DNA of 50,641 nt from Clostridiales bacterium (GCA_031273825.1 JAISRB010000047.1:1-50641), one strand, 5' to 3'. Shown: positions 22,825 through 47,942, counted from the stretch's first letter. A program made the numbers and translations. Notes: a model not told the origin generated them from the sequence alone.

Positions 22825-23019
22825 AGCCTCTCCTAATGATTCTCTCTTTGTGCGTTTCTTTGTCTTTCTAACGGCTGAATTATAGCTGACAATGCCTTGT
22901 CGATTAACCCGCCGTCATACAACTGTAGATAATAGACTTGTCATTTAATTCAAGTTTAGATTAACGATTGCGGCGATAAGGTTTGTTCTCAAGTTATGCT
23001 TTTTGCGGTGATTATTCAC

Positions 23020-23484: not shown

Positions 23485-23486
23485 GA

Positions 23487-23548
23487 AAAGCGGGTTTCCC
23501 GCCTTGTTCCAACGTCGGAATAGCCATATTGCTATTCCCTTATCCTCG
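23487..23548. promoter_or_regulatory. oriT-like double hairpin of the outer element (interrupted by the nested element)
   Basis: GCGGG-TTT-CCCGC (23490-23502) and GGAATAGC-N6-GCTATTCC (23517-23538); similar to the hairpin upstream of the relaxase. Confidence 0.45.
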
Positions 23549-23550
23549 TA

Positions 23551-23576
23551 AGATATACAGAAGGATACATTTTGCA
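23551..23576. repeat. Left terminal inverted repeat (att arm) of the nested element
   Basis: agatatacagaaggatacattttgca, reverse complement of 35496-35521 with 2 mismatches. Confidence 0.9.
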
Positions 23577-23613
23577 GACTGGGGTTTAACCCGTCTGCTG
23601 TGTCTTTTTGGGG

Positions 23614-25475
<1,862 letters not shown>

Positions 25476-25661
25476 TTCTCCTCAAATTTACTTTTGTGTG
25501 GATATCATGTTCTCTCTCCTGAATGGATACCGTGTTCCTTCTCCACATACCACAAAACACCTCCTGTAATGTATTTTCGTGTCATGGGGTTCGGCGGTAA
25601 AAGCGGCTTATTCGGTCAGTTTTGCCGTCGACTACAAATCATTGAATGAATGTAGTTGTTT

Positions 25662-25958
25662 TTAGTTTTTATCTGTTTTTTCTTTTGTGGATCTTTCGGA
25701 TTCAAAATCGAAAAAGTCATCGTAGCCGTCCATAATTTTCGCTAAAGATAAATTCTTTTCGGCGGATTGCTCTACTAATGCCTTGTAACCTTCTTCTATA
25801 AGCTGTACCTTTGTAAAGCCGTACCCTTTCAGAAAGGCGTTAATCTCATCGGCTTTTTCTTTGGGTACGCTTGTTCCCCAAACGGCACTTTTGGCTTTTC
25901 GCTCGTTCCTATGCTTATCCTCATAACGCTTATCTTTTATAGCTCTCGTTTTTTTCAT
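25662..25958 (-). CDS. Hypothetical small DNA-binding (RHH-like) protein
   Basis: GGAGG SD; TTGACG-N18-TAAAAT upstream; WGTSVPKEKADEINAFLK..G.TKVQLI pattern. Confidence 0.55.
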   Translation of the reverse strand: MKKTRAIKDKRYEDKHRNERKAKSAVWGTSVPKEKADEINAFLKGYGFTKVQLIEEGYKALVEQSAEKNLSLAKIMDGYDDFFDFESERSTKEKTDKN

Positions 25959-26063
25959 TATATCCTCCGAAAATATTGCGTCGTATAAATACGATTGATT
26001 ATATTTTACACTATATGGGGCAATAGCGTCAAGCGGAATGGGATAGTTAAATAAATTATTCCG

Positions 26064-26258
26064 CTAATCCTTGCCACAATTATAACGGCTGTTGTTTTTC
26101 CGCGGGAGAATTTCTACGGATGCTTCTTTTTTCGGCTGCCGTTGCTCCCGTTCATGCTCGGCTTGCATTTCCTCCTCAATCTCTTTTAGGCGATTGCCGT
26201 AGGCTTTTGTTTCGGATAAAAACCATCTTAGAATACTACCAAACATATCGAATGACAT
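26064..26258 (-). CDS. Short ORF, probably the out-of-frame C-terminal part of the relaxase
   Basis: Overlaps the relaxase 3' end in another frame; no clear SD; coiled-coil-like content. Confidence 0.4.
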   Translation of the reverse strand: MSFDMFGSILRWFLSETKAYGNRLKEIEEEMQAEHEREQRQPKKEASVEILPRKNNSRYNCGKD

Positions 26259-27303
26259 TTCCCAAGCGGCGGCGGTAGTCCCATTCTAAACGGTCTATGG
26301 TTTGAATTTGCTTGACGCCGAATAAATCTGAAGCATCAGCCATATCTGCGTCGTCTTTGAACACGCCGTCCTTTTTCATTCGCTCTTTATAATAATTGCC
26401 CATAATGGACTGTAACGCTTTCTCTTTCTTTTTCAGTTCCTCCCGAAAAGCATTGTCAGCCCAAAAAACATTATCGTCGGTTGCGGCAATAAATTCTACA
26501 ATGTCATCTACCTTGTTGCGGAATGGGATCATGTCCTTGCGTCCATACTGAAATGATGCGTTTCGGGGGATTATTTCCGCTAATTCTTTCATCATTTTGG
26601 TTGCCGCATCCGTGAATTTTGCCTTAGTAAAATCACCGCCACAATGGTGCAAAGCATCAACCGCATCATCACGCTTACGGGCAAGGTCATCGTCAAGGGT
26701 ATAAGCGTTTAACCTTTCCGTCATTTTGTCAATAGCATCCATTGGGATTTTGCCTTTAGCACGGTACTTAATTCCCGCCGCCCGTTCATTTTTTACCTTC
26801 GGCTCTTTCTCCCAAAACTCATAATGAATATGTAAATGCCGAGGTCGGTCTAAGTGAAGGGCGCACATCAAATCCATATTGCTTGGGTCAAAGCCTGCGT
26901 CTCGAAAAAACTCTCCGAATACGCTTTTTACAAGGGCAATGCACTTTTCCGGATGGTCAATCTTTTCCGAATTTTCTTCGTTGAAAGAGATAAATCCATG
27001 CCAAAGATTCTTCTCTCCCGACTGCGCGCTTAGCTTCATTTGCCTTAATTCCTCGTACTCAAGCATACCGCTTTGGTTAAACACTCCGGTCGATTTCTGA
27101 AGGTATTCAAGCATTGTAAATTTTTTTGCTTCTTCTCCAAAAACCTTGCCGTCGGTGGTGATGTATTTGTAATGGTTGTCCGCGCCGGTGAAGTCATAAA
27201 AGCTGCGTTTCTTTTGATGTGCCGATATTTCTGCTGCCGTTGCATTTTTCTTTAGCCGATACGGCGTATAGGCTATATCGAATATAACAGGTTGTGTTCC
27301 TAT
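26236..27303 (-). CDS. MobL/MobP2-type relaxase (ATA start; possibly degraded)
   Basis: LWHGFISF and ALHLDRPRHLHIH HUH motifs; frame stays open 63 codons upstream of the track start 27114, up to ATA at 27303 behind GGAGG, adding a Tyr-containing N-terminus (HYKYITT). Confidence 0.78.
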   Translation of the reverse strand: MGTQPVIFDIAYTPYRLKKNATAAEISAHQKKRSFYDFTGADNHYKYITTDGKVFGEEAKKFTMLEYLQKSTGVFNQSGMLEYEELRQMKLSAQSGEKNLWHGFISFNEENSEKIDHPEKCIALVKSVFGEFFRDAGFDPSNMDLMCALHLDRPRHLHIHYEFWEKEPKVKNERAAGIKYRAKGKIPMDAIDKMTERLNAYTLDDDLARKRDDAVDALHHCGGDFTKAKFTDAATKMMKELAEIIPRNASFQYGRKDMIPFRNKVDDIVEFIAATDDNVFWADNAFREELKKKEKALQSIMGNYYKERMKKDGVFKDDADMADASDLFGVKQIQTIDRLEWDYRRRLGNVIRYVW

Positions 27304-27423
27304 AATCTGTCCTCCAATTTGATTTTTTGTTTCTGCTTTTTGTTATAGGTCTATATGTTGTTAAGTTTTTTTACACAAATAAATACCTCCGTTTGTATGT
27401 TTTTCCGTCCTCTGTGGACATAA

Positions 27424-27504
27424 ATAAAGGTGGGTTTCCCACTTTATCCCGCCGTAAGGCGGTTGGGCATTTTTTAGTCTTGACTGCAAAATCTTAGCCT
27501 GCTT
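27424..27504. promoter_or_regulatory. Candidate oriT of the nested element
   Basis: Adjacent hairpins ATAAAGGTGGG-TTT-CCCACTTTAT and CCGCC-GTAA-GGCGG directly upstream of the relaxase. Confidence 0.5.
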
Positions 27505-28043
27505 CCTTTTTGCTAAATAGCAACACCTTTGCAACAGCTTTGGTTTCCGTTCGGTTCACATTTGGCTCCCGTCTGCTTGACCGTTATTTCGGATTTTGTC
27601 TTTATATGTGCGTTTATTTCATATTTACTATTTCCTTGTAACAATTAAAGTATCTAACAACAGCTCTGTGTACAAACTGTCAAGTGTAGATTGTTTCGTA
27701 TGATTGTTTCGTAATTAATTCCTCCGTGAATTTTGTGATTTTTGTTGTTGGTTTTTATGTGGCTATAATTGTTTTCAAGCGTTCACTTCGCTTTTTCCGT
27801 TATTTTGGTAATGCTCTTATCATTGTTTATCCCTCCCGATTATTTTGTTTATGGACAGAAAAAACGCCCCGTTATTTACTTCTACGAAGTGTTTTTGGTG
27901 TTGATATAGTTGTGGTTTTAGTATTAAAATGCCGCTTATGAAAACTTTCACAAACGGCATGAGTATGATAAAAGGAAGTCGTTAAAACCCCATGATACAT
28001 CAGTTAAATGTACCCGATTGTGCTTTGGTTTCACTTTTCATGT

Positions 28044-31019
28044 CTATTCCTTGTCTAAGCCGCGCCACACGGTTTCGACTGAATAGCGAATGCCCGTATC
28101 GATTGCCTTAAAGTGCGCCGCGCCGCAGCGGTTTTTAAAATTCACAATGCCGGTTAAGCCTTGTTCGTCTTTTATTCCTTTTGTTTCGATAATAAAATAT
28201 AGCTTTTTTTCGCCGTCCGCTGTTTCGTAATAAACCGCCCAATCCGGGCTGTAATTGCCGATAGGGGTGCTAATCTTAAAACGCGTTGGGATTTTAAAGA
28301 ATAATTTAACGTCATTGTCAATGTCTAAAGCCCGTGCAAAATCGCTTTCCACTCCGCTGTCGAAAATAACGTGGTCATAAACCGAATGTTCTACCGCAAT
28401 CGCATTGTGGTCTAAAAATGCGAGGGCTTCCTTTTCGTCTGCAAAATTAAAAACCTCGTACCAAGTGTACTCTTGCCCGTCGAGGCGTGTGTATTTTATG
28501 CCGTCCTCCATCATAACGTCGATTTTTGTGCTGTTTATAATCTTGATTACCGCTTCCGCAAAGGACTGCGGGTTATTTACAAAGTCCGCAAAGCGGTCTG
28601 CCGCAAGCAGAATTTCGCCGACTTCCTTGCGCGGCATTCTACAAGCCGCCGCAACCGTCGCCGTTATATCCGGCAACAAAAATTCTTGCTCCGCATCCGC
28701 AAAGCGTTGCCGCGTTTCTTCAAAACTAACGCCCGCCTTTGCAACATCAAGCCGCGCTTCCTCTTTGCGGATGCGTATAGGCTTTATTTCTTCCATAGCT
28801 TTTATACGTTCCGCACACTTTTCGTGCAGAGCGGTTATGTCCATAGCCATACGAAATATAGTTTTTTGTTTCATTTTGCCCCAAATCTCCGTAAACTGAG
28901 GAGAGAGGAATATGTCGTCCTTACGCTTAACGGAAACCTGTTTTTTATACGGCTTAATCTCGACCTTTTTGTCGGCGGCAAGCAGTATAGGAATTATGCG
29001 CTCCCGCGCCGCCTCAAAGCGGGCGGGCAAGTCAACCGTTCCCGTTTTAAGTGCGTTTTTAAGCGTATCTTTCACCTTTCCGCTTGTATCGATATAGTTT
29101 TTAGCGCGGAAATGTTGCAGAATTTCCGTCGCCTCCGCATGGTTAATCTTTTTATGTTCGGCAGCTTCCGCACCGCTTGAGGTAGCGTCATCTGCCGCGC
29201 CGTTGTTATCATTATAGGAAATGTTTACAAACATTCCGATATCCAAAACGCCGAATTTAACACCCAATTCCTCAATTTCTGTTTGCAACTTTGCCGCAAA
29301 CTCACTAAAGCCCTCGTTGCTTATAACGTGTAGGATATTTATGCTGTCCTCCTCAATCCGTTCACCGTTTTGATTTACGCAAAGCCTAAGCCCGCGCCCG
29401 ATTTTTTGGCGGCAAGTAAACGGCGTTCTATTTTCAATCAACGTGCAGATTTGGAACACGTTGGGGTTGTCCCAACCTTCCCTTAGCGCACTGTGTGAAA
29501 ATATAAAGCGCAGAGGGGATTCAAAACTAAGTAGAACTTCCTTTTGTTGCATGATTAGCGAATAAGTGTCAAAGTCATCCACCGTGTCTCCCCTTGTATC
29601 TTTTAACGCTCCTTTTTTGTCCTTGCTAAAATAACCGTTGTGAACGTCGGTCACGTCCTGCGGAAAGCGTTCACGTATCGGCGCAAACTTTGGCAAAGCG
29701 ATAAGGCGGGCGTATTCTTCCTCAAACATTTTTGCGTAAATGCCTTTTGCGTCGTCGCCGTCCGCGCCGTGAATGCGATATTTTGCCACCTCGTCAATAA
29801 AAAACAGCGACAAAACCTTGATACCACGGCTAATATACCGCAATTCCTTTTCAAGATGAATTAGTATAGTGCTTTTAATTTGTTCGCGCTTCATTACCGT
29901 TTCGTCCACGCCGCCGATAGTCTTTCCTGAGCTAAGGGTTTCGGTATTAGAAAACTCTATTCCTTCAAAGCCCTGCGTGCAGTCGATTCCTTCAATCTCG
30001 TAGCCGTCGTATATGTCGCGCCCCGTAACCTCGGAGAGTTTTGCATTGGACGAAACCGTTACGGTCTTACGCCACACAAGTCCCGTTTTCGGGTTGCGAA
30101 TATCAAGCTCTAATTTAGCGTAGAAACTGCCTTTTTTGCCAACCTCCACAAGCCGAATATAAGGCTTATTAAACCCACCCGCCACGCTGTCGCTTGCAAT
30201 GCAAATCTGCTTGACGATTTTCTTTTCGTATGCGTCCACGGGAGTGAGGCGGTAAATCGTGTTTATTTTTTCTTTATGCGTCGCGCTATAACGCAACTCG
30301 CAAAGAGGGTTGAGATTGTTCTTGATTGCCGTCCGCGCTAATGTCGTAGTGTCTAAGCTCTGCGGTTCGTCAAGTATCACGATAGGACGGCACTCGGTCA
30401 TAAACTCCCGCGCCGTTTTATCCATGCGGTCGCTTTCCTTAACAAAAAGGTTGCTGTCCTTGTTTATTGCGTCGATAGTTACAATCATAACCTCTAAGGT
30501 TGACGAGAGCGCAAAGTCGCGCACCTCGTTTAGCTTTTTAGAGTTGTATATAAAGTAATGCGCCCGCCGTCCGTCGTACTCCTGCGCAAAGTGCGACTCC
30601 ATGATTTTGAAGCTGTGGTATACGCCCTCGCGAATGGCGACGCTCGGAGCTAAAACTACGAACTTGTTAAACCCATATAGCTTGTTAAGCTCAAATATAG
30701 TCTTTATGTACACAAACGTCTTGCCCGTGCCTGTTTCCATTTCAATATTAAAGCGGTATTCGGGTTGTCCGTCCACATCGGGTATTTCCGTAAGAGGAAG
30801 TAGGTTCATTTCTTGCACAGCGTTCATATTCGCTTGTATTTGAGCGCGGTCTATTGTCAGCGCATTACCGTAGCCTTGAAAAACGCCTTGCGCGTGGTCG
30901 TGCAAATCAAGCCGTTCTACTGAAAAAATAGACGGTGCACCCGTCTGCCCTTTGAACAGCTCCGCCGCCGCGTTTACCGCATCTATTTGGAATTGTTGTT
31001 TTTTAAATTTTAGTTTCAT
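28044..31019 (-). CDS. res: Type III restriction enzyme Res subunit
   Basis: METGTGKT, PSVAIREG, DEPQ, RYSATH, LREGWDNPNVFQIC, C-terminal PDW...IIETKG nuclease motif. Confidence 0.95.
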   Translation of the reverse strand: MKLKFKKQQFQIDAVNAAAELFKGQTGAPSIFSVERLDLHDHAQGVFQGYGNALTIDRAQIQANMNAVQEMNLLPLTEIPDVDGQPEYRFNIEMETGTGKTFVYIKTIFELNKLYGFNKFVVLAPSVAIREGVYHSFKIMESHFAQEYDGRRAHYFIYNSKKLNEVRDFALSSTLEVMIVTIDAINKDSNLFVKESDRMDKTAREFMTECRPIVILDEPQSLDTTTLARTAIKNNLNPLCELRYSATHKEKINTIYRLTPVDAYEKKIVKQICIASDSVAGGFNKPYIRLVEVGKKGSFYAKLELDIRNPKTGLVWRKTVTVSSNAKLSEVTGRDIYDGYEIEGIDCTQGFEGIEFSNTETLSSGKTIGGVDETVMKREQIKSTILIHLEKELRYISRGIKVLSLFFIDEVAKYRIHGADGDDAKGIYAKMFEEEYARLIALPKFAPIRERFPQDVTDVHNGYFSKDKKGALKDTRGDTVDDFDTYSLIMQQKEVLLSFESPLRFIFSHSALREGWDNPNVFQICTLIENRTPFTCRQKIGRGLRLCVNQNGERIEEDSINILHVISNEGFSEFAAKLQTEIEELGVKFGVLDIGMFVNISYNDNNGAADDATSSGAEAAEHKKINHAEATEILQHFRAKNYIDTSGKVKDTLKNALKTGTVDLPARFEAARERIIPILLAADKKVEIKPYKKQVSVKRKDDIFLSPQFTEIWGKMKQKTIFRMAMDITALHEKCAERIKAMEEIKPIRIRKEEARLDVAKAGVSFEETRQRFADAEQEFLLPDITATVAAACRMPRKEVGEILLAADRFADFVNNPQSFAEAVIKIINSTKIDVMMEDGIKYTRLDGQEYTWYEVFNFADEKEALAFLDHNAIAVEHSVYDHVIFDSGVESDFARALDIDNDVKLFFKIPTRFKISTPIGNYSPDWAVYYETADGEKKLYFIIETKGIKDEQGLTGIVNFKNRCGAAHFKAIDTGIRYSVETVWRGLDKE

Positions 31020-31654
31020 AATCCTTCATCCTCAAGTACTCTGAATATATCAGGATGCTCTTCACGGTCTATAATATTCGACAACAAACCATCTACAAGA
31101 GCAAATTCAAATAAGATAAGTTCAAAGGAATTCGAACCTTTATTATCATTTTTGTCCGTTAATATCAAAAAATTATTATATATGTTGATTAGCGTTTTTT
31201 TGAATAATATCAAAAGGTCTATTAAATAAATTTTATTGAATCTTTCTGCATCACCGTAAAGCATTTCTAATAAATTATGACCTATTTCATCTCTAATTTT
31301 TTTGAGTTTAAAGTATTCCTTTTTGTCCTCTAAATTCATAAAGTCAAATAAAACCATGATATCAATTATGTCCGCTTTTTTTAGTGTTTTTTTATCGTTA
31401 AACATTTTTTTCAAGCTTGCTTTCATTATGGCTGCATAAACATCTACAGGCTCTTTTGTATCATAAGTTTTTTGCAGATTTCCGCCTATTCTATTACATA
31501 TAGTCAAATTAAATCTTTCAAAAACTGCAATAAAAGCGGCAGAAAAAACTGCGCTTTCAATCTTGTCATTATCTAAAAAACGGTTATCATTAATTTTCTG
31601 CCCTCTTATGGCAGCTAAACCTAACTTGTAGTTTGCAATTTTTTCTTGCTGCAT
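31016..31654 (-). CDS. AT-rich helical protein with HEPN-like Rx4H motif
   Basis: KIRDEIGHN motif; upstream ..VFERF helix; ATGA overlap with res. Confidence 0.6.
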   Translation of the reverse strand: MQQEKIANYKLGLAAIRGQKINDNRFLDNDKIESAVFSAAFIAVFERFNLTICNRIGGNLQKTYDTKEPVDVYAAIMKASLKKMFNDKKTLKKADIIDIMVLFDFMNLEDKKEYFKLKKIRDEIGHNLLEMLYGDAERFNKIYLIDLLILFKKTLINIYNNFLILTDKNDNKGSNSFELILFEFALVDGLLSNIIDREEHPDIFRVLEDEGL

Positions 31655-31655
31655 A

Positions 31656-33788
31656 TCAAAACAACCTCATTTCCTGTCCGGCTTTTTTTAGTATCTCGTC
31701 GCAGTTGGTCATGGCGTTGGTGTCGGTAAAGCACATATCCGCAAAGAAAAGCGTACCCGCGCCGACTGCCGACAAAGCCTCCATTTGCTCGATTGTTAAG
31801 TCGGGTTGCATACAAATCAAAACCTTGTATGCGTCCATGTTCTCGTCGCCCGCGTGCGTGATTATATGCGCCGCGGCGTTCGCCGCCGTAACTTCCTCTA
31901 CGGGTAAAGTTAGCGGTAAGCTGTATTTGAGCATAATCTCGTATACCAAATCAAGAGGCTTGCGGTCGGGCAGTAAATAATCGTAGTACGCAAACACTCT
32001 TTGCGCTAATGCCTCGTAGTCCCGCGTATAGCTGTTGTCCCATTTGCGTAGGTTGGACGCGTCAAGTTTGAATACCTTGAAGCCTGTATCTAAATTTTCA
32101 GACATTTCTTTATTTTTTTCATCATCTCCCCAATAAGCTATCGCCTTTTTGACGGTATGCGTTTTTCCATTTATAATCATATCTCTTCCGTCATCCAACA
32201 GTTTAGCTTTGCCGACCGTAATATCTTGTAACTCGGGCGTTCCGTGTTTTTGATAATATCTATAAATATCGCCATTCTCCAACAAAAAGTTTTTTATCTT
32301 TTCACCCGCACGGCGTATGCGTTCTTTGCCGATTTCGCAAAGGTTTTTATATCCTGCCTTATATGCCTCACTATTCCCGTCAGTTAATTCCGGCATTTGC
32401 ACGCAGATAAATTTGCGTTTGCCGCCGTCCTCCGCGTTTAATTGCATAACTGCGTGCGCCGTCGTGCCGCTCCCACTGAAAAAATCAAGAACTATGTCGT
32501 CGTTTGTCGTGCTAAATGCTATTAAAAATTTTAGCAACGAAATTGGCTTTGCATAATCAAAAGGTGCGACTTCAAAAAGCGAAATGAGATTCTTTTTGGC
32601 GTTATCGTTTGAGTATGCATTTTCAACAAACTCTAACGACAATAGAGGCTTTGTTCTTTCAATATAGCGAATTTCAAAACCGTTCGTGATTCTTTCTATT
32701 GAAGCGTTTTGATATGTTTTAGTATATATTCGGGAATAACCGTCGTATTCTTTTACCACTATAAAGCCATTCTTTAAGCCGAACTCGAACAACTCTTTAC
32801 TCCATCGCCACGCCCAATCTGCGCGGCTGTATTGTCCGCTTTTCCGTGCGTTGTATTTTTCAAGTGAGTTGCCGGGATAAAGGGTTTTGCCGTTAATTTC
32901 AATCGGATAATCCAAGCTTGGACTATATTGCAAACTGTCGTAGTCAAGCGTTTGGTTTAGCTTATATTTTCCCCTTGATTCGACAAATTCATCCTCAAAT
33001 TTAAAACCCTCGTCAGTATGGCTTTGTAAATTAAACCTCACACTTTCCGATTTTGAATATATCAAAATGTAATCATGGTTTGACGCTATTGCGTCTGTTG
33101 TTTTCCCCGCCTTTTTAGTGACTCGCGGTAGTATTCCTAAAAAGTTATACTCGCCGAACACCTCATCGCAAAGTTTCCGCAGGTTCGTAATCTCATTGTC
33201 GTCTATGCTTATAAAAATAACGCCGTCAGGCTTCAAAAGCACCCGTGCCAATTTCAACCTCGGCAACATCATGTTTAGCCAATTTGTGTGATACCGTCCT
33301 GCCGTTTCCGCATTACTTTTTGCCGTTGCGCCGATTATCTTTTTGTAGTTTTCTATGCAGTCGGCAAAGTCGTCTTTATATACAAAATCGTTGCCCGTGT
33401 TATACGGCGGGTCTATGTATATCATTTTAACGCGGTTCATATAGCTTCCCGAAAGGAGCTTGAGAACTTCCAAATTATCGCCCTCAATATAAAGGTTTTC
33501 CGTCGTGTCAAAATCCACGCTTTCCTCTCGGCAAGGGCGGAGCGTTCCCGTGCTGCGTTTTTGTGCAAGGCGTATCGCGTCCAATTTGCCCGCCCATGAA
33601 AAGCTGTACTTTTCGCGTGAGTCCTCGACGTATTCACCTAAACTATTTTGTAGCGCGTCAAAGTCAATTTTCCCGTCCTTAAACACCTCGGGGAAAACCG
33701 CCCTTAACTCCTCAACTCTTGCCGCCGCTAAGTCGGGCGTTTGTCCGTCTATTTTTTCATTTTGCGTTCTCCTTTTCAAGTAAATCAA
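31656..33788 (-). CDS. mod: Type III R-M Mod N6-adenine methyltransferase (start region frameshifted or ambiguous)
   Basis: IEGDNLEVLK, IYIDPPYNTG, FISIDDNE, KPISL, DFFSGSGTTAHA, LDTGFKVF. Confidence 0.93.
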   Translation of the reverse strand: MIYLKRRTQNEKIDGQTPDLAAARVEELRAVFPEVFKDGKIDFDALQNSLGEYVEDSREKYSFSWAGKLDAIRLAQKRSTGTLRPCREESVDFDTTENLYIEGDNLEVLKLLSGSYMNRVKMIYIDPPYNTGNDFVYKDDFADCIENYKKIIGATAKSNAETAGRYHTNWLNMMLPRLKLARVLLKPDGVIFISIDDNEITNLRKLCDEVFGEYNFLGILPRVTKKAGKTTDAIASNHDYILIYSKSESVRFNLQSHTDEGFKFEDEFVESRGKYKLNQTLDYDSLQYSPSLDYPIEINGKTLYPGNSLEKYNARKSGQYSRADWAWRWSKELFEFGLKNGFIVVKEYDGYSRIYTKTYQNASIERITNGFEIRYIERTKPLLSLEFVENAYSNDNAKKNLISLFEVAPFDYAKPISLLKFLIAFSTTNDDIVLDFFSGSGTTAHAVMQLNAEDGGKRKFICVQMPELTDGNSEAYKAGYKNLCEIGKERIRRAGEKIKNFLLENGDIYRYYQKHGTPELQDITVGKAKLLDDGRDMIINGKTHTVKKAIAYWGDDEKNKEMSENLDTGFKVFKLDASNLRKWDNSYTRDYEALAQRVFAYYDYLLPDRKPLDLVYEIMLKYSLPLTLPVEEVTAANAAAHIITHAGDENMDAYKVLICMQPDLTIEQMEALSAVGAGTLFFADMCFTDTNAMTNCDEILKKAGQEMRLF

Positions 33789-34209
33789 TTTTGCCTAAGT
33801 CGGCTTTCTTTTTGCTAATTAAAGTAATTACATATCCAAAAATGACAACGTAATTATTCATAGCGTTAAACATTTTGATGGAAAGCAAATAATCTAACGC
33901 AAACAGTACCACCATACACTTCAAAATGGTATAAATCGCAAACTGGAAGTTCAAACATTCAAGAAAGCCATATTTTTTTGTTTTGAATCGCTTACTTGTT
34001 AGCCATAACACTACAGCAGGCAGCAAGTAAATCAAAAGCCTATAAAGTATCAAAGATATATATTGCAATGCGCTTGTAACATTGCCGTCTTTTTCTAAGC
34101 TTTCCCATAGCGTTCCAGTATCTAATAAAGCGAAACTCAGCGTGATAATTGCAAACACGCCCATAATGATAGGCAACGCTATTAGAAATTTTATAAAAAC
34201 TTTTTTCAT
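33757..34209 (-). CDS. Hypothetical 4-TM membrane protein
   Basis: Four hydrophobic segments; TGATG and ATGA overlaps with its neighbours. Confidence 0.7.
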   Translation of the reverse strand: MKKVFIKFLIALPIIMGVFAIITLSFALLDTGTLWESLEKDGNVTSALQYISLILYRLLIYLLPAVVLWLTSKRFKTKKYGFLECLNFQFAIYTILKCMVVLFALDYLLSIKMFNAMNNYVVIFGYVITLISKKKADLGKIDLLEKENAK

Positions 34210-34583
34210 CAGCTTCCTTTCAATACCTTCAGCACTTTATCCCCAAAATCCTCTTGACAAATCCTTACGATTTCCTCGACAGCCTTTTTGACTTTTTCCT
34301 TAAACGCAGGGGGATAGCCGTTGTTTTTTTTCTTCCCCTCAACATACTCGCTATCGTAGTTATCTAAAAGGTCATTAACAATTTTTCGTGCTTGACTTTG
34401 TTTATTTCCGCTTAGCTTTTGATAAAGAGCTTGTAAAAAATTATTTAATGCTCCGTCACTAACATCTGCTTCATCGTTTAATTGCGAAAGCACCGCCATA
34501 ATTCTATCAAGTTTACTATTATCTTTTATCTTTGAAATTTCGTCGCAAATTCTTTCTCTAATTTCTTTTGATTCGTTACCCAT
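34209..34583 (-). CDS. Hypothetical helical protein (124 aa)
   Basis: GAGG SD; stop overlaps the start of the membrane gene. Confidence 0.7.
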   Translation of the reverse strand: MGNESKEIRERICDEISKIKDNSKLDRIMAVLSQLNDEADVSDGALNNFLQALYQKLSGNKQSQARKIVNDLLDNYDSEYVEGKKKNNGYPPAFKEKVKKAVEEIVRICQEDFGDKVLKVLKGS

Positions 34584-34594
34584 AATTTCCTCTG

Positions 34595-35012
34595 TTAATC
34601 CTTTCCCCTTTTCCCTTTAATTGTCTTTATTTGTTCAGTTTGTAGCTGCAGAATTGATTTTTCTGCTGTCGGTAAATCCTCGGGTATAGTTCCGCCGATT
34701 TCCTCTATTGCACCACGCGCTGCTTTTCCGATTCTGTAATGCACCTATCCCGCTTCCGTTTTGTCGGTCACGATATGTCGCCGCGTACGAACAATAGCTT
34801 GCTATCCTCATCAAGCCGTTCATAAAGCTCTTGAATCTCTTGTTGGCGCGTTTTTAGCGCAAAATAGGTTTGACCTAAGGCTATCACCTCTTTGCGCGGA
34901 TCGCCGTTCATTACGATAAGATAACAAGCTAGCGATTGAGACAATAGTCAGTAATACTGTCTTGTCTGCCCTTTTATTGGCTTCCTAACCTCGGAAAAGC
35001 AATCCCTTTACC
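34595..35012 (-). pseudogene. dinD: DNA-damage-inducible protein D (DinD) remnant
   Basis: Fragments ACYLIVMNGDPRKEVIALGQTYFALKTRQQE and HYRIGKAARGAIEEIGGTIPEDLPTAEKSILQL, separated by a stop/deletion; frameshift before ACY. Confidence 0.8.
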
Positions 35013-35013
35013 A

Positions 35014-35220
35014 TTATTCTTTTGTCCCCTTTTCGTCAAATTTTACTCCGTACTTTTTGCATAACTCGTCAAATCTAACCATTATAAGTTTTGTCGCCTT
35101 ATAATGCCCCATTTCCCATCGATTGACTGTTGTGTAGGCAACGCCAAGCAGCTCTGCAAGTTGCATCTGCGATATTTGTAATTTGACTCTCAATTGTAAT
35201 ACTTTTTCAGCGAAAGTCAT
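35014..35220 (-). CDS. XRE/Cro-family HTH regulator
   Basis: LRVKLQISQMQLAELLGVAYTTVNRWEMG; ATG at 35220 after GGAGAGGTG. Confidence 0.88.
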   Translation of the reverse strand: MTFAEKVLQLRVKLQISQMQLAELLGVAYTTVNRWEMGHYKATKLIMVRFDELCKKYGVKFDEKGTKE

Positions 35221-35251
35221 TGTCACCTCTCCTTTTAGCACTCTATGTTAT

Positions 35252-35280
35252 ATTATAGCAGTTTTCTTTTTCAATGTCAA
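35252..35280 (-). promoter_or_regulatory. Consensus SigA promoter driving the xre-dinD'-orf-orf-mod-HEPN-res unit
   Basis: TTGACA-N17-TATAAT with TG extension on minus strand. Confidence 0.8.
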
Positions 35281-35495
35281 ACTGAGAACATCCGTTTTCT
35301 CCAAAGTTTTATATATAGCTGTTTAAAGTTCGCGTCTTTATAGCTACATTTATTAGGCTAATATTAATCAGTAAGCAGAAGCCTAATTTTTACACCAAAA
35401 AGGTTACACCTAAAATCGCATATAACCTCTTGATGTTTATTTGTTTTTATCACGAACTTGCTGTTTGACCTTACTTTTATATAATTTTTTATTAT

Positions 35496-35521
35496 TGCAA
35501 TTTGTATCCTTCTGTATATCT
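35496..35521. repeat. Right terminal inverted repeat (att arm) of the nested element
   Basis: tgcaatttgtatccttctgtatatct. Confidence 0.9.
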
Positions 35522-35820
35522 AACCCTGCTTGTCTTTTTTAGGTTTTTGCAACGGTTTTGTCAACCTCCAATTCATTCAAATCGGTATTACTTTCGATAG
35601 AATTTTCATTCTTTTCCCTTTTTGCTTGTGGCTGTCTAACCTTGTCCTGTCTTTCCGTTTCGTCGTATTGTTTCCGCCGAATTGCCCTCTTAAAAAAATC
35701 CCTCCACTACTTAGAAAAAAAACGGCCTATCGTCAAGGTGTTTTTAGAAAAGTTTTTTTAGAAACTTTTTAGGTTTTAGACCTTTTGGGCATAACTTCTC
35801 AAAGCGGAAGTAACCGCATA

Positions 35821-36076: not shown

Positions 36077-37438
36077 TTAATCGTTAATTATTTCCCAATA
36101 ACCGTCCTTATCCGAACCAATGCGTTTAATTAAGCCTTTTTCTTTTAAGGCTTTTATTGCGCGTTTGATAGTCCCGATGTCCTTTCCCAATCTTATGCAC
36201 ATTGCTTCCGATGTCAATGTTTTATCCTCTTTCAGCATTTCTAAAACGACGTTCTGTGTCTTCGATAATTTTACAGTGGCGTTTACAGTGGCATTTACAG
36301 TGGCGTTTTTGCTTGTTTCGTTAGGGGAAATCCTGAATACTGCAACGATATCCGAGCCGTTGTATCTGTAATCCACATCAGACTTGCCATCGGCGCGAAG
36401 TGCAAGGTTGATTCTTTCAATGCCGCGACCCCACGCCTCAATCATACCTGAGCGGAAAAAGGCGTTGGCAAGCAACGGATTGCGCGGCTTGGATTTGTGC
36501 TGACCTTTTAGGTCGTTGATAGTCCAGTCGTCGGGTAGTCTACCCTCGTTATCAATCTCTACCTTGTCGTCATAAATGCGGATTTGTATCGGATTGTTTG
36601 AATAATAGTCCTTGTGAATGATTGCATTAATAACAGCTTCGCGGAACGCGCTACGCGGAACGGGAAAGATTTCCACCCGTTGAATCCCTTCGTAGGTTAT
36701 CTTCTGCGTAAAATACTTTGAGTAGGTTACGTCCATAATTTTGTCCGGCAATGTAATAAGCGGTCCGCGAAACTCATCATGATACCTGATGTCATCCGTA
36801 ACATTTTGCCTTTCGCTTGTGATATATGCAATCTTAACGTAAGAGCCTAAGACCCAATATTCCGGATTTTCATGAAAAAGCAAGACGGCGGCGCGGTTAA
36901 GCGCACCATTTTTTTGAAGTAGCCCAAGACTCTCCAAAAGTGTTTTATCGCTAATTGCCAAATCGTCCTCAGTCAAGCGGGTGCTCGACAATGCCTTTTT
37001 CCGAAACAGCTTTATTGCATCAATATGCAAATCATCGACAGTTACATTGGGTAAAAGGAAGGAGTCCCATGTCTTTCCCTGAACGCGCAACAGAAAATCA
37101 TCCAAAGTTGCACCCGATAGCTCTTGTGTTGTGCTGCCGGAACGGTAATAATATTTCCCGCGGCAGCTTATCGCCTGACCGTAAGCGTTGACCGAAATAC
37201 GGATATAAGACAGCCCGTCCTCTTCGCGTAGCTCAACATCGGCAACAATTCCCAAAGCCTGCCGTATTTTATTCGGCAAATCCTCCAAGAGCTTTTTGGG
37301 ATTAGAAAGCCCGACAACCTTCCCTTTGTCATCCTTACCGATTTCAAGTGTCCCACCCTTAGTATTTGCAAAGGCGCACAAGGCTTTTAAAAACTCATCG
37401 TCCCACTGACGCTTGTATTCAATCGTTGGGCTTTCCAT
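36077..37438 (-). CDS. AlbA_2 (Schlafen-like) + HATPase_c_4 (RecG-C-like) + wHTH protein
   Basis: ES.TIEYK...AFANTKGGTL.IG..D, REAVINAIIHKDY, PRNPLLANAF...IEAWGRG, RIGSDKDGYW. Confidence 0.88.
   Translation of the reverse strand: MESPTIEYKRQWDDEFLKALCAFANTKGGTLEIGKDDKGKVVGLSNPKKLLEDLPNKIRQALGIVADVELREEDGLSYIRISVNAYGQAISCRGKYYYRSGSTTQELSGATLDDFLLRVQGKTWDSFLLPNVTVDDLHIDAIKLFRKKALSSTRLTEDDLAISDKTLLESLGLLQKNGALNRAAVLLFHENPEYWVLGSYVKIAYITSERQNVTDDIRYHDEFRGPLITLPDKIMDVTYSKYFTQKITYEGIQRVEIFPVPRSAFREAVINAIIHKDYYSNNPIQIRIYDDKVEIDNEGRLPDDWTINDLKGQHKSKPRNPLLANAFFRSGMIEAWGRGIERINLALRADGKSDVDYRYNGSDIVAVFRISPNETSKNATVNATVNATVKLSKTQNVVLEMLKEDKTLTSEAMCIRLGKDIGTIKRAIKALKEKGLIKRIGSDKDGYWEIIND
36270..36308. 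repeat. 12-bp in-frame tandem repeat x3 (NATV linker)
   Basis: tttacagtggcg tttacagtggca tttacagtggcg. Confidence 0.85.
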
Positions 37439-37566
37439 GTTAACCTCGCTTATGTTTTAGTGTATATTTTCATCTTTTCCTTCATGCTTTGGCTGGTTTT
37501 TCAAGTAGAGTTGTCGAAAAAACATTTCTATTTTATAGCCACAAGCAACATTGCCTGGACTCTCAT

Positions 37567-37776
37567 TTATATAAATAACGTACAGCCTTGTGCTTTAAAA
37601 TCTTCTGCTTTTTCAAGCAAAATATCGGTAGTGGTATCAAGATATTCCGCGAGACAATCCATGCAAAAAAAGAATATAATGTTTCGTCCAAGCAGTTTTT
37701 TGTTTAGACCGACTGCAATTTTTGTCAATTCTCTTTTGCACAAATGACATGATATCGGTTTATTTTCTCGCATCAC
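37567..37776 (-). CDS. Small Cys-rich Zn-finger-like protein, last gene of the BREX-4 operon
   Basis: CHLC...CMDC plus C-terminal GCTLF; starts immediately after the brxL stop; AGGAG SD. Confidence 0.75.
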   Translation of the reverse strand: MMRENKPISCHLCKRELTKIAVGLNKKLLGRNIIFFFCMDCLAEYLDTTTDILLEKAEDFKAQGCTLFI

Positions 37777-39276
37777 TCACTCCTCTTTTAATTTATATGT
37801 CGACATGCTGCGTTTGCCAAACTGGGTTGGATCTATTATTTGCATTTGTTTGAACACCGTTTCCCTCATGCGTTTTGCCGGTTGCAAACAATAGGTCATA
37901 AAGTCTTTACGAAAATCCTTATCTTGAATTAATTCACCGTCCGCATGTGGGAAAAATAACTTTAAATATGCAGTGCTCAAGCGCAAAACTGCTTCACTTT
38001 CTCTTTGATCTGCCCCCTGCCTTGTTTGCACTATCCGCTCAATGAGTCCGCGATAACGAAGTGTTTCAGCGGGAGCGCGGAGCAAATGCATTATTTCGGT
38101 AAAATACTCAGTATTAAGTGCCCAATCATTAATTATCATTGATTTAGTCAATGGCGGAATCCTTTGTCCGGGAATAAATCCATGTACGCGTTCTATTAAA
38201 GCTGCATCACGAAAAACCTCCGGCAATTCACGGAACATGTCTTTTGATGCATCCATATCATTTAGGTTTATATTTCCAAGCAAAATAATACCCGCATCAC
38301 CTTCGACTTTAACATTTGCGACATTGACAAATCCAAATTCCATATACCCCTTCAAAATACCTTGCATTTCCGAAGAATCTGGAAAACTAATCGATTTTAT
38401 TTCATCAACTGCAACGAAATCGTTGTACGTTACTATCCCAAATTTCTTAGATGAAATATCATAGAATAGTTTCGCGCGACTTAAGCTGCCGCCGCCCGCA
38501 AGCCAACCATACTTTCCAATATTCCCAAATATGTATGATTTTCCAGTTTGCTGAGGAGCTAGTTCAATAAGGTTAAGTCGCGGTTCGATAAATGGTAGTA
38601 GCCTTGTTAGCATTGTATGCTTTGCTTCCCAAATTTCGTTGGACAAAAGAGGTCTACCGCCAATCTGAGCCAATGCATATCCATCGGCATTATAGTCGAT
38701 AGCACCTAAAACAATATCCATCCATTCTTCCGTATCAAAGTGCTTTCTTGCTTCGCGGAAGGAATCAAGTTTTACAGTATAGGGGCAAAAATTCTTATAC
38801 TCAAGAAGAGTAAAGCGCCCGTTATTCTTATTTTCCTCAGGCGGCATATAACCAAGTTTAACTAATCCCCATCCTCCAGCACCGCCTATAAGTTCTCCCT
38901 TTATTCTTTCCCAGACATAATCTTCAATAATAGTCTGATTGTGCGAAAATCCAAGAACAGGGATTTCAAACGTATAATAATTAGCTCTTGAATTAAACAG
39001 TACATCAATCTTTGCCAAAAATTTTCTCGTTTCTCCATTTGAACGAGCGGCATCTTCGAGTTGTCCCTTTTCTTCACGACGTGGAATAACAATGCTAATA
39101 TATTTGCTCAACGCGTCTATATCACCGATACGACCGTCGCTGTCAGCTTTTTGTTTCAAGATCCAATCGCGTAAAAATGACGGTATCTTTGCGTTCTTAA
39201 ATACCGCAGTTATTGAAGGATCCTTAAAAACTGTCGTCGTTGGGAACAGTTTTCTTAATTTTATTGCATCGTACAT
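37777..39276 (-). CDS. brxL: BREX BrxL-like ATPase (short form without a Lon protease domain)
   Basis: LTRLLPFIE..NLIELAPQQTGKSY, AKLFYD, VAVDEI, LKGYME.G, LIERVHGFIPG. Confidence 0.88.
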   Translation of the reverse strand: MYDAIKLRKLFPTTTVFKDPSITAVFKNAKIPSFLRDWILKQKADSDGRIGDIDALSKYISIVIPRREEKGQLEDAARSNGETRKFLAKIDVLFNSRANYYTFEIPVLGFSHNQTIIEDYVWERIKGELIGGAGGWGLVKLGYMPPEENKNNGRFTLLEYKNFCPYTVKLDSFREARKHFDTEEWMDIVLGAIDYNADGYALAQIGGRPLLSNEIWEAKHTMLTRLLPFIEPRLNLIELAPQQTGKSYIFGNIGKYGWLAGGGSLSRAKLFYDISSKKFGIVTYNDFVAVDEIKSISFPDSSEMQGILKGYMEFGFVNVANVKVEGDAGIILLGNINLNDMDASKDMFRELPEVFRDAALIERVHGFIPGQRIPPLTKSMIINDWALNTEYFTEIMHLLRAPAETLRYRGLIERIVQTRQGADQRESEAVLRLSTAYLKLFFPHADGELIQDKDFRKDFMTYCLQPAKRMRETVFKQMQIIDPTQFGKRSMSTYKLKEE

Positions 39277-39288
39277 TGTTTTGCTCTC

Positions 39289-41376
39289 CTAAAAACTAAA
39301 TTCCACTTCTTCTATCAGTTGTTCACTCGGCTTTGAACGTTTCTTAATAATCGTATCCGTGAAAACCTTAGAGAAAACGATTATTGGGACAAGCCGTTCT
39401 TCAAGAGAAGCCCCACCGTGCAGTTCATTTTTTGGCGCACCCTGTTTAGACAAACGATTATAGCCGCGAATAATCCAATAAACACATTGGCGTTCAAGAT
39501 CGCGTTTTTCCTCAAAACCGTCAGGGCAAACCATCCCTTTTGAAGCTCTCGCGTAACGCCAGTCAAGTGGATTTTTTATCTCTTCATTTATTTTTGCCAA
39601 ATCATTTTCGTATGCGATTATTGCAAGCCTTGACGCCCCGTGATCTGCTGTCAATATTACGCGATCATATTGCATTAACGCCTTGACTACTCGAATAAGC
39701 ACACCTTCTAAAGCATCAAATACAGCAACAATATTCTGTTCGGGAGTGCAATGCTCATGTTTAACAGCACCATCGTGGACAATATCGTCGATCAATTTTG
39801 CCGGAGGAAGCCTATTAATTTTTATTGTTTTATCACCTATTTTATTGAAATCTGTTTCTGTAGGCAGGTTTGCTTCCGCGATATGAATTGATTTGATATT
39901 AATTTCTCTGCGACTAGCCACAGCGAAAATTGCAGGTATATACTCTACGCCCATCCCGTCAACAACAAGTATGGCTGATTTTTCATCTGTAGGCATTTCC
40001 GATAAGAGGACGTCTCTTTTTTGTATCAATGGGGGCAATAAAAAGTCGCCTGCGCTTTTTACAAAATCTTCTGTCACCGTGTTTTTCAGTTTAAATTTTC
40101 TATAATCGTCAAAATAATCATTAAGTTCTTTAATTCCAAAATCATATTCCATAGAGAGATAGTCATCCAACATGGGATATAATCCTTGCCACAAACAAGA
40201 TAACCCTGTTGTCAAATCGCTCATCGATACCCGTCGGACAATTTCTTGTTTTTCCGCCTTTGTTCCGCAGTTAAGCCAACAAGCAACAACATCATTTGTA
40301 TAAGAATTTGCGTTTTCAATAAACTCAACAATAAACGATTCGCCTTGCCCATTTAGTTCTTTTATGGCATCAGCACGTTCTTTGGCATATTTAATAGAAT
40401 TGATATCCCCAAAGACCATTAAGGGATAATCTGAAATATAGACACGTAAAATATTGTCGCAATTTAAATTTTCACTTAAAACTTTTGACATATATGAAGT
40501 GTTGTCTATCTCGTTTTTCAACATCCACACATACGCTATCCATAAATCATCGTTTGGCATTTCTTTTAGTCGTTTTAATGCAAAAATAGAATTAATGTTA
40601 ATTTCTCCAAACTGTTTTTTTAGAAACAGTTTTGGATGTAGTTTTGCACTTTTACTTTTTATTAATAAGCTCTCTATCGTACTTTGTGGCAAATCGGCTT
40701 TGATTTCGTAAAAATGTTCGGCTATACGTTTAACATCAGTATATTGCACGATTCCTTCTGATAGCCCTGCTTGACTTAAAGTAAAATCGCTCAAGGCAAG
40801 CGTAATGTCAATATGCTCGAAATTATCACCAGATTCAAAATTGCCGAGCATATCCAACAACTCAATCCAATTTCTACAATAGCTTTTATTTTCCACCCAT
40901 TTTTGTGACACAAGCCTTACCGTTGGCGGTAAAACAGGCTTGCCGTTTTCGGTAATATTAACTATTTGCAACGAGTTTTCATATTTCGGATTGCTAAATT
41001 GTTTTTTATCAAAGTTGCTTTTGCTAATCATATAAGCAGCATTGAGTTTTTGTTCGTCTATCCTTAACTGTAGTGCAACCATAAATGCATTTCTGCTTTG
41101 CCTACTTACTAATAATAAATATCCGTCAATTCCGATAACGACAACACGTCTATTTAGAGCATGAATCTTTTCATCTATTTCAATTATCAATTCACTAGGC
41201 GTTGGAAGCAAGTATGTATTGTCACTAATGCACTCTGATAAACTTAATATGTAGTCATTATTATTTTTGTGTTGCGCAAGTAATTTTGCTGCCATATCAT
41301 TGTCTGAATAGACTTCAACGCAAGTAGAATCGGTGACAATATATTGTAAATATTCATTAAGAGAATAGTTCATCAC
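39289..41376 (-). CDS. pglZ: BREX-4 PglZ alkaline-phosphatase-fold protein
   Basis: VVDGMGVEY, A.LPTET.FN, LTADHGASRL, HGGASLEERLVP. Confidence 0.9.
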   Translation of the reverse strand: MMNYSLNEYLQYIVTDSTCVEVYSDNDMAAKLLAQHKNNNDYILSLSECISDNTYLLPTPSELIIEIDEKIHALNRRVVVIGIDGYLLLVSRQSRNAFMVALQLRIDEQKLNAAYMISKSNFDKKQFSNPKYENSLQIVNITENGKPVLPPTVRLVSQKWVENKSYCRNWIELLDMLGNFESGDNFEHIDITLALSDFTLSQAGLSEGIVQYTDVKRIAEHFYEIKADLPQSTIESLLIKSKSAKLHPKLFLKKQFGEININSIFALKRLKEMPNDDLWIAYVWMLKNEIDNTSYMSKVLSENLNCDNILRVYISDYPLMVFGDINSIKYAKERADAIKELNGQGESFIVEFIENANSYTNDVVACWLNCGTKAEKQEIVRRVSMSDLTTGLSCLWQGLYPMLDDYLSMEYDFGIKELNDYFDDYRKFKLKNTVTEDFVKSAGDFLLPPLIQKRDVLLSEMPTDEKSAILVVDGMGVEYIPAIFAVASRREINIKSIHIAEANLPTETDFNKIGDKTIKINRLPPAKLIDDIVHDGAVKHEHCTPEQNIVAVFDALEGVLIRVVKALMQYDRVILTADHGASRLAIIAYENDLAKINEEIKNPLDWRYARASKGMVCPDGFEEKRDLERQCVYWIIRGYNRLSKQGAPKNELHGGASLEERLVPIIVFSKVFTDTIIKKRSKPSEQLIEEVEFSF

Positions 41377-45560: not shown

Positions 45561-45562
45561 GT

Positions 45563-47941: not shown

Positions 47942-47942
47942 A

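Follow-up and report, generated by a model that had tools for sequence, protein, structure and literature searches.

Small mobilizable elements that integrate site-specifically in the transfer origin (oriT) of an integrative and conjugative element (ICE), just upstream of its relaxase gene, have been described as IME_oriTs, a group of streptococcal integrative and mobilizable elements (IME) (Libante et al. 2020, PMC7563843). In the passages cited here, IME_oriTs are reported from streptococci and Staphylococcus, guest and host are transferred separately, and transfer of the ICE is not reduced (PMC7563843). A second point of reference is pLS20, whose oriT precedes both the auxiliary genes and the relaxase gene; the relaxase RelLS20, with Y26 and a His triad as catalytic residues, cleaves the template strand next to an inverted repeat (PMC5313138). 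For MOBP systems, the nick consensus 5'-(C/T)ATCCTG(C/T)-3' with an inverted repeat immediately 5' has been given for RP4 and the Helicobacter pylori tfs4 island (PMC3772185). The locus analysed here lies on a stretch of 50,641 nucleotides from a Clostridiales bacterium (GCA_031273825.1 JAISRB010000047.1:1-50641), hereafter the window, which is the entire contig C24 of a 132-contig, 1.74-Mb assembly. An initial annotation, made from this sequence, had proposed that a nested element with its own recombinase, oriT and relaxase sits inside an outer island, in the oriT of the latter, which it would disable. The nesting was confirmed, and the literature premises on which the proposal was built agree with their sources: pLS20 oriT precedes auxiliary genes and relaxase gene (PMC5313138), and streptococcal IMEs are found in ICE oriTs (PMC7563843).

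The reading considered probable here is that a 12-kb element carrying a type III restriction-modification (R-M) system and a MobL-family relaxase gene has integrated into the oriT-like core of a BREX type 4-like defence island, and that its recombinase lineage uses this core, in sibling elements, as attachment site (attB). The evidence that carries it consists of the nesting and its borders, the conservation and placement of the motif, and a target choice specific to lineage and orientation, all observed directly in the loci compared. Inserted elements are called guests and receiving elements hosts.

Target choice of the guest recombinase

According to this reading, the outer island would have been integrated by its own serine recombinase and carries a BREX-4-like system and an auxiliary, putatively relaxosome-type gene, with no relaxase seen. 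Its oriT-like region would consist, on the gene strand, of a core AAGCAGG-N-TAAG (12-13 nt), an adjoining variable inverted repeat and a conserved hairpin before the first mobilisation gene; the template strand of the core would present (C/T)ATCCTG(C/T), or a variant differing at one or two bases, with the repeat on its 5' side, which is the MOBP-type nick arrangement. The two halves of this region would now lie at 23487-23546 and from 35528 onward, an 11,981-bp element with type III R-M genes, a MobL gene, an intact region of its own and a serine recombinase having integrated into the core. The exchange would occur at CT/AG, 1-3 nt 5' of the predicted nick. With the core of sibling elements as attB, islands of this lineage could stack inside one another; insertion would silence the host copy until excision, and the composite could then move from the intact copy of the guest by means of the guest MobL.

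Ends of 102 homologous recombinase genes were located in class, order and family samples and in loci of the species collection, 99 of them with at least 150 nt of downstream flank. Six of these 99 adjoin the core, reading ...TTA(C/T)GAGG, next N-TAA(A)G and then the hairpin, against none of the other 93. The six belong to the window and to genomes G489 (recombinase 69% identical to the nested one), G810 and G787 (57% each), and G807 and G422 (56% each). They were counted as separate insertions because all host flanks differ, and the relative orientation of guest and host module is the same in all six. In a maximum likelihood (ML) tree of 41 recombinases, all six fall in a single clade of seven members (SH-aLRT 98). 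Homologues of at most 54% identity have different ends and different targets, and the motif is itself present in elements whose recombinases, of at most 52% identity, differ in their ends and targets. Targeting of the oriT-like core by this lineage is well supported by these comparisons, and the earlier proposal of a recombinase that targets oriT was upheld in so far as the target is a conserved cis-site of MobL-type modules, in six of the seven clade members.

The lineage is not rare, since a large protein collection contained 56 clusters 59-71% identical to the nested recombinase. Neither the nested element nor the outer island had a close copy in the collections searched. With the 19-nt end repeat, viral contigs gave no match and metagenome contigs 16, all in unrelated coding or other sequence with similarity over at most 22 nt, and no sequencing run was listed. 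Plasmids yielded only recombinase fragments of 60-80% identity, and a protein search of viral contigs yielded no relatives. A scan of genome contigs with the nested recombinase returned 39 loci of at most 51% identity, which differ from it in ends and targets; none above 50% was found in the class-level sample.

Several points weigh against the proposed lineage-specific use of the core. The tree was a quick ML search with SH-aLRT support only. Genome G853, the seventh clade member, has a similar end and lies beside a convergent Y-family polymerase gene without motif. The recombinases of G787, G807 and G810 are nearly identical and come from one genus, and so represent three insertions of one element type rather than independent lineages. 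The target is followed by a MobL gene in one case of six (G489); in the window and in G810 it is followed by the auxiliary gene only, in G422 by the 98-aa gene only, and in G787 and G807 nothing was found with the queries used.

A separate clade was seen in G489:C2 (L154/L170) and G837:C3 (L167), where two recombinases 54% identical to the nested one both end next to the 5' end of a gene that, judged by eye, looks like an IS200/IS605-type transposase gene. A gene of a mobile element may thus be the target of this further lineage.

Through the insertion in the window, the repeat and TATCCT have come to lie at the left junction and G^C at the right one. The corresponding octamers of the occupied site read TATCCTCG at the left junction and AACCCTGC at the right one, the latter lacking a preceding repeat. 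Provided that the analogy with MOBP origins is valid, occupation probably inactivates the host copy, and precise excision would restore it.

Four of the five other guests were checked for MobL; these guests, of G489, G787, G807 and G810, carry an auxiliary gene and an intact origin-like region of their own and no MobL gene. A relaxase-less layout of origin-like region, auxiliary gene, 98-aa and 67-aa open reading frames (ORFs) and recombinase gene was seen in these four guests and in the host of G810 (loci L164, L150, L166 and L165). The outer island of the window similarly has the origin-like region and the auxiliary gene (23020-23469) alone, without MobL. Such elements would depend on MobL supplied in trans. 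The outer island as merely a decayed MobL element was considered and rejected, the arrangement of an auxiliary gene without MobL recurring in the guests of G489, G787, G807 and G810 and in the G810 host.

Describing the guest as a parasite requires care, because no relaxase gene of the outer island lies in the window, one target of six has a MobL gene, and four of the five other guests have none. The guest of the window brings the only relaxase seen and may enable movement of the stack rather than disable the host. It is possible, if somewhat doubtful, that such stacking is cooperative: the guest would supply relaxase and intact origin, the composite, excised by the host recombinase, would become mobilisable, and the core would be a harmless landing site. 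This would suit a window without a MobL gene of the outer island and a guest with an intact origin-like region and a MobL protein that retains invariant catalytic-type residues; the shared orientation of guest and host module in six cases of six fits as well, as does the report that a streptococcal guest did not lower host transfer (PMC7563843). Against it, the four other guests checked, of G489, G787, G807 and G810, offer an auxiliary gene and no relaxase, the right part of the outer island, where a relaxase gene could lie, is beyond the contig end, and excision of the composite as one unit is a supposition.

For integration into an oriT-like core, the reading preferred here, a further and tentative extension can be formulated. 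The serine recombinase lineage would have adopted the nick octamer as attB, insertion and excision of the guest would switch the host origin off and on, the guest origin (here with a relaxase) would control the stack, and repeated rounds would build nested or tandem defence arrays (BREX, type I and type III R-M, SIR2) in gut Clostridia. If true, this would describe a site-specific route to defence-island formation and a replacement of origins between mobile elements. Defence cargo was present in all units seen (BREX-4, type III and type I R-M, SIR2 and SNF2-type proteins), and site-specific stacking at the core is a plausible route to composite defence islands.

The motif as a candidate transfer origin

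MobL homologues were found in 41 of 401 sampled genomes of the order to which the window belongs, compared with 6 of 399 sampled class-wide. Twenty MobL modules were examined, which form two groups. Thirteen have the gene order of the nested element (MobL, 64-aa, 98-aa and 67-aa ORF), with MobL proteins 40-71% identical. In the other seven, a homologue of the 149-aa gene of the outer island lies directly upstream of MobL (tblastn; 36-41% identity in the six loci L087 and L104-L108, 30% in L092). A core-repeat-hairpin layout was present upstream of the first mobilisation gene in 18 modules; in one module the core was split by an insertion, and one lacked the motif. On the gene strand the layout consists of the core (A/G)GCAGG-N-TAA(A)G, an adjoining variable inverted repeat, sometimes a further repeat, and the hairpin G/T-N-GGGA(A/T)ACCC-N-C/A, which sits just before the ribosome-binding site and whose stem changes are paired. 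The inverted repeats equivalent to that of the outer site vary in sequence between loci and keep their position. In auxiliary-first modules the hairpin is followed by a short T run and the ribosome-binding site. With the CT crossover, core and hairpin are 47 nt apart in the outer site, compared with 46-50 nt in five of the seven auxiliary-first modules and 72 and 121 nt in the other two. Among the loci fetched, 33 distinct copies of the motif were counted.

Within the window, GGGTTTCCC occurs twice, at 23492 and 27432 (chance expectation 0.24; 2 of 100 shuffles reach two), both times inside a 13-nt palindrome (GCGGGTTTCCCGC at 23490-23502, GTGGGTTTCCCAC at 27430-27442). The pattern G-N-GGGA(A/T)ACCC-N-C was found three times in the 1.74-Mb assembly, two of them being the outer and nested sites. 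The second hairpin of the outer site folds with a z-score of -3.8 and the hairpins of 27424-27504 with -2.8, each better than 200 of 200 shuffles. A local alignment of the reconstructed outer site with 27330-27640 scored 22, which was equalled or exceeded in 110 of 300 shuffles and in 58 of 370 random windows, and the pairwise likeness of the two sites, taken from the window alone, is a weak lead. The initial annotation had recognised this common layout; its two copies of GGGTTTCCC, its hairpins and the TAACCCTGCTT at 35521 are present as described, whereas its reconstruction of the empty site was off, having included bases of the element ends, and the alignment was not significant. The layout itself proved real once the 33 copies and the 18 MobL modules were considered.

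By analogy, the motif would be an oriT with a predictable nick position. It is read as such because it travels with mobilisation genes and not with a given recombinase, because its position matches that of the pLS20 oriT (PMC5313138), because its template-strand core equals the MOBP nick consensus, and because the nested MobL passes the Pfam cut-off, matches MobP2/MobP3 in part and retains the invariant tyrosine and histidines. The template strand of the outer core reads CTTATCCTGCTT and contains TATCCTGC directly after the repeat with 8-bp arms, which corresponds to the MOBP nick consensus with an inverted repeat immediately 5'. The nested MobL matched PF18555 with 46.2 bits (cut-off 28.5; E 4e-12) over profile positions 58-312 of 383, the 52 N-terminal residues lying outside the match; MobP2 and MobP3 of NCBIfam gave partial matches of 43-46 bits, far under their cut-offs of 150-200. 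In a comparison with 17 homologues, Y46, H149, D151, H157 and H159 were invariant and H155 nearly so, giving the pattern H-x-D...H-x-H-x-H. The nick is predicted after G, between 35528 and 35529 in the outer and between 27501 and 27502 in the nested site (+ strand), 1-3 bases 3' of the exchange point. Alignment of the motif across MobL elements, which the initial annotation had proposed as a means of finding the nick site (nic), yielded a conserved core from 25 copies, with nic placed by the MOBP analogy.

The 149-aa gene appears to be the auxiliary gene of a MobL module, since homologues lie directly upstream of MobL in seven modules. The earlier description of it as a ribbon-helix-helix (RHH)-like gene was borne out as to this position and not as to the fold: the protein matched no Pfam or NCBIfam family, its AlphaFold2 model was poor (mean pLDDT 60.6) and contained no strand, and Foldseek against the PDB found no match at E <= 0.001. 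A relaxosome-type role for it is suggested solely by the position upstream of MobL. No closer copy of the gene was found among 61 genomes related to G000 (best 31%), and a search of 28 genomes of the family of G422 added nothing.

Other points tell against an origin. Since GCAGG is a fixed part of the core pattern with which the 33 copies were counted, the count is no proof of invariance; the fairer alignment of 25 copies left only GCAGG, the AA of TAAG and GGA.ACC invariant, with a mean column identity of 50%. The exact YATCCTGY was found on the template strand in 13 of the 33 copies, and the other 20, including the nested TAGCCTGC, have one or two changes among the first three bases and keep CCTGC. 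The nick region of pLS20 is unlike the core in sequence, and the nested MobL is a distant member of that family. The case for nicking or mobilisation at all these sites is built from sequence and analogy, a circumstance that also suits the unlikely alternative that the motif is some other cis-element of the backbone (operator or leader sequence of a mobilisation operon, or a dedicated docking site) used as attB, with the nesting real and unrelated to nicking. Such a role would agree with five of six targeted copies having no relaxase gene after them, with the hairpin, short T run and ribosome-binding site of the auxiliary-first modules, which suit a leader or attenuator, and with the different sequence of the pLS20 nick region (PMC5313138). 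It agrees less well with a motif that goes with mobilisation genes and not with recombinases (at most 52% identical, with other ends and targets) and whose invariant part coincides, on the template strand, with the region of the MOBP nick hexamer, the repeat lying on the expected side (PMC3772185). Furthermore, no terminator-like or promoter-like site above chance was found at 22900-23700 and no Rfam family at 22500-36200, and islands with only an oriT are already a described class (bioRxiv 10.64898/2026.01.13.699239).

Besides the motif, the origin-like regions of the guests of G489, G810, G787 and G807 (L150 18300-18700 on G489:C1, L173, L175, L166) are closely preceded by a run of direct repeats of about 90 bp. 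Each of these repeats holds AAGTGTGCTTGGTTAAGTAGAG-like words, and they look like iterons or protein-binding arrays. On G787:C7 (L165/L176, about 4.7-5.0 kb) a second, intact origin-like region directly follows the remnant of the occupied core in opposite orientation, so that the two are head to head, and R-M genes lie beyond it.

Crossover position, borders and gene content

Serine recombinases perform a two-base staggered exchange. In gene orientation, the junction of the nested element next to its recombinase gene reads ...GTATATCTTACGAGG then ATAAGGGAATAGC..., and the distal junction ...GACAAGCAGG then GTTAGATATAC...; TTA and AGG are common to both, so that the window alone could not place the exchange. 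In G489, the recombinase lies at the end of a 13,555-bp element with junctions (marked by a slash) ...ATATCTTACGAGG/CTAAGAG... and ...GAAAGGAAGCAGG/GTTAGATATTC..., and L098, an uninterrupted homologue of the G489 host, reads GGAAGCAGGCTAAGG, matching the left flank of G489 at 73 of 80 positions. Similarly, the junctions of G807 read ...CATCTTACGAGG/TAAAGAA... and ...TTTGCAAGCAGG/GTTAGATATTC..., and intact relatives read GCAAGCAGGTAAAGAA. The distal junctions of the window, G489 and G807 are each AAGCAGG/GTTAGATAT..., and each pair of junctions restores the canonical core. At the exchange point the three have only AGG in common, and the junction is precise, with no target duplication beyond the overlap. 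The junctions of G489 and G807, compared with the uninterrupted homologues, therefore place the exchange within AGG.

As read from the sequence, the joined ends are symmetrical about AG (gene strand), which corresponds to CT at 23545-46 and 35526-27, within the CCT shared at 23544-46 and 35525-27. A crossover at CT/AG gives a nested element of 11,981 bp and the canonical core AAGCAGGATAAGG as empty outer site, which would read 12-13 nt on the gene strand and ...GCTATTCC-CTTATCCT-GCTTGTC... on the + strand. This empty site is modelled on homologues of about 40% protein identity and on the two parallel cases. TAACC (35521-35525) and CGTAA (23547-23551) are ends of the nested element, whose joined ends are identical to the core at 8 of 11 central positions; TAACCCTGCTT, which includes five element-end bases, owes part of its resemblance to TTAGCCTGCTT to this imitation of the core. 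Inverted repeats terminate the element: a 19-mer is perfectly repeated between 23551-23569 and 35503-35521, and the repeat continues with mismatches to the ends.

A crossover at TAA, which would leave ...CTCG-TAA-CCCTGCTT as an empty site resembling TTAGCCTGCTT by common descent of the two origins, can account for the TAA at both junctions (23549-51 and 35521-23) and for a near-perfect palindrome of the joined ends, yet it is extremely improbable and was ruled out: the nine extra core bases that it inserts were found in no intact copy, the end sequence ...TCTTACGAGG of G489 and G807 meets CTAAG or TAAAG where uninterrupted homologues have AAGCAGG directly followed by CTAAG or TAAAG, and an odd-centred palindrome does not fit a two-base exchange. 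The borders 23552-35520 and the TAA crossover of the initial annotation are therefore replaced, on the evidence of G489, G807 and the uninterrupted homologues, by the exchange at CT. Coordinates are collected in Table 1.

Table 1. Features of the window, with positions counted from its first letter
Feature	Position	Strand	Basis or remark
Outer island large serine recombinase, 558 aa	20900..22576	-	Pfam Resolvase, Recombinase, Zn_ribbon_recom, DUF4368
Outer island auxiliary gene, 149 aa	23020..23469	-	Counted from second ATG after GGGAGGGAG; tblastn homology
Outer gene-proximal hairpin GCGGGTTTCCCGC	23490..23502	.	Conserved in 33 distinct copies; paired stem changes G-C/T-A, T-A/C-G
Outer inverted repeat GGAATAGC-N6-GCTATTCC, 8-bp arms, adjoining core; variable, element-specific	23517..23538	.	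Fold
Repeat-proximal half of split outer core, CTTATCCT	23539..23546	+	Crossover dinucleotide CT at 23545-23546
Nested element, 11,981 bp	23547..35527	all genes -	Borders from G489 and G807 (both junctions) and uninterrupted homologues
Nested large serine recombinase, 554 aa	23614..25278	-	Pfam; tree; junction survey
Three small ORFs between MobL and recombinase: 67 aa (25272-25475), 98 aa (25662-25958), 64 aa (26064-26258)	25272..26258	-	
MobL-family relaxase gene, 355 codons if ATA start 27301-27303 (after GGAGG)	26236..27303	-	PF18555
Intact oriT-like region of nested element	27424..27504	-	Core AAGCAGGCTAAG (27493-27504, gene strand), two imperfect repeats, hairpin 27430-27442
Nested cargo, type III R-M: res helicase-endonuclease (28044-31019), 212-aa ORF, N6/N4 methylase (31656-33788)	28044..33788	-	Pfam ResIII, RE_endonuc, N6_N4_Mtase
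Distal half of split outer core, GCTTGTC...	35528..35539	+	Junction sequence; predicted nick between G35528 and C35529 by MOBP analogy (PMC3772185)
Outer island cargo, BREX type 4-like set and preceding AlbA_2/Schlafen-HATPase_c_4-wHTH gene	36077..50192	-	Pfam, NCBIfam
BrxL	37777-39276	-	Pfam BrxL_ATPase, BrxL_N
PglZ-4	39289-41376	-	NCBIfam BREX_PglZ_4 NF033445, 192.6 bits vs cut-off 140
PAPS-reductase/4Fe-4S protein	45563-47941	-	Pfam PAPS_reduct
Further BREX-set proteins: 1395 aa; 749 aa	within 36077..50192	-	No family match in the BREX type 4 comparison; 749-aa protein noted as HARE-HTH

Housekeeping genes (glycogen genes, dnaB, dnaG, rpoD and a lacZ-like gene) extend to about 20.9 kb at a G+C content of about 50%, and from about 22 kb rightward the G+C content is about 34-48%. 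The left end of the outer island is its recombinase gene, which abuts the remainder (3' part, 20594-20878) of a BspA-type leucine-rich repeat (LRR) gene whose reading frame follows the recombinase stop codon; the right end lies past the contig end. Homologous recombinase genes at L142 and L160 likewise adjoin LRR-type coding sequence, which suggests a lineage with LRR-type genes as target. PF00239, PF07508, PF13408 and PF14287, the domain set of large serine recombinases, were matched in both recombinases of the window, which are 38% identical. No relaxase gene of the outer island was found within the window, its right part lying beyond the contig end, and a search of 22400-23100 found neither a MobL gene nor a remnant between auxiliary gene and outer recombinase gene. 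The outer cargo contains a PglZ of type 4, BrxL and a PAPS-reductase-domain protein, the components by which BREX type 4 is recognised.

In the nested element, the 67-, 98- and 64-aa ORFs matched no Pfam family and have homologues in the same order in L094-L103. A gene for an XRE regulator is also present on the - strand; between it and a 124-aa gene, two short overlapping ORFs (58 and 62 aa, 34635-34944) look like pieces of a broken gene.

The MobL frame of the nested element has no ATG, GTG or TTG upstream of Met63. An ATA start 5-9 nt past GGAGG was noted in 14-15 of 19 MobL genes (window, L088, L094-L098, L102-L104, L106-L109), against ATG in three and TTG in one. No other start is possible in L106-L108, where a stop codon precedes ATA at a distance of one or two codons, and the first ATG of the MobL gene in the window would cost 62 residues, including the invariant Y46. 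Conservation of this rare start suggests translational throttling of the relaxase.

Comparison with known systems

Clostridial mobilisable transposons of the Tn4451/Tn4453 type are likewise bounded on one side by a large serine recombinase gene and contain small accessory ORFs and a Mob gene preceded by its origin; their targets resemble the joined ends. They differ by a Mob/Pre-type protein and chloramphenicol resistance, and are not known to choose the origin of another element.

In the MOBP nick regions of RP4 TraI, VirD2 and the VirD2 of H. pylori Tfs4, the same octamer with an inverted repeat 5' on the nicked strand lies upstream of the relaxase gene (PMC3772185). In the present elements the relaxase belongs to Pfam MobL and to no curated MOBP family, most copies of the core are variants at one or two bases, and the cleavage site is a predicted one. 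The pLS20 module (oriT_LS20, aux1, aux2, relLS20) shows the same order of origin, auxiliary gene and MobL-family relaxase gene, with a nick in the template strand beside an inverted repeat (PMC5313138, PMC5675868). It belongs to a conjugative plasmid, both of its auxiliary proteins are of the RHH type, and its nick region is GC-rich and unrelated in sequence (PMC5313138), in contrast to one or no auxiliary gene, an RHH fold unsupported by prediction, and a MOBP-like core here. The 'iOriT' elements resemble the outer island and several hosts and guests in having an origin or origin-like region and no relaxase (bioRxiv 10.64898/2026.01.13.699239). In the parts of that survey cited here, serine recombinases are given for less than 1% of islands and integration into origins is not described.

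The closest parallel is formed by the IME_oriTs, which likewise are small mobilisable elements situated in the oriT of another integrated element and carrying their own relaxase; a minority is found at other chromosomal sites in both systems (8 of 64 IME_oriTs, PMC7563843, versus one of seven here). The IME_oriTs have int/xis genes, a Rep_trans (MobT) relaxase and the conjugative hosts ICESt3, Tn916 and ICE6013 (PMC7563843). The present guests have a large serine recombinase with a DUF4368 tail and small, non-conjugative hosts that often lack a relaxase, and the MobL of the window goes with a MOBP-like core; recombination takes place within the octamer presumed to be nicked. Lacking both a Rep_trans/MobT relaxase and a related int/xis, the nested element is an analogue of the IME_oriTs and not a member. 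In titles, abstracts and some passages of the literature on integrative and mobilizable elements, MOBL, and serine recombinases with oriT, no description of serine-recombinase integration into a MobL-type origin was found. Integration of an element into an oriT would so far have been established only for the streptococcal IME_oriTs.

For a MobL branch that has been little studied and is common in one order of gut Clostridia, the locus provides a candidate origin with its candidate nick site. It also provides a defined pair of attachment sites (attB/attP) with a new specificity for a large serine recombinase, together with a possible mechanism for the stacking of defence cargo. An origin would be a safe landing site, guaranteed to lie within DNA that travels. 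If recombinase and relaxase families unrelated to those of the IME_oriTs have reached the same strategy, origin-hunting would be a general solution for small islands.

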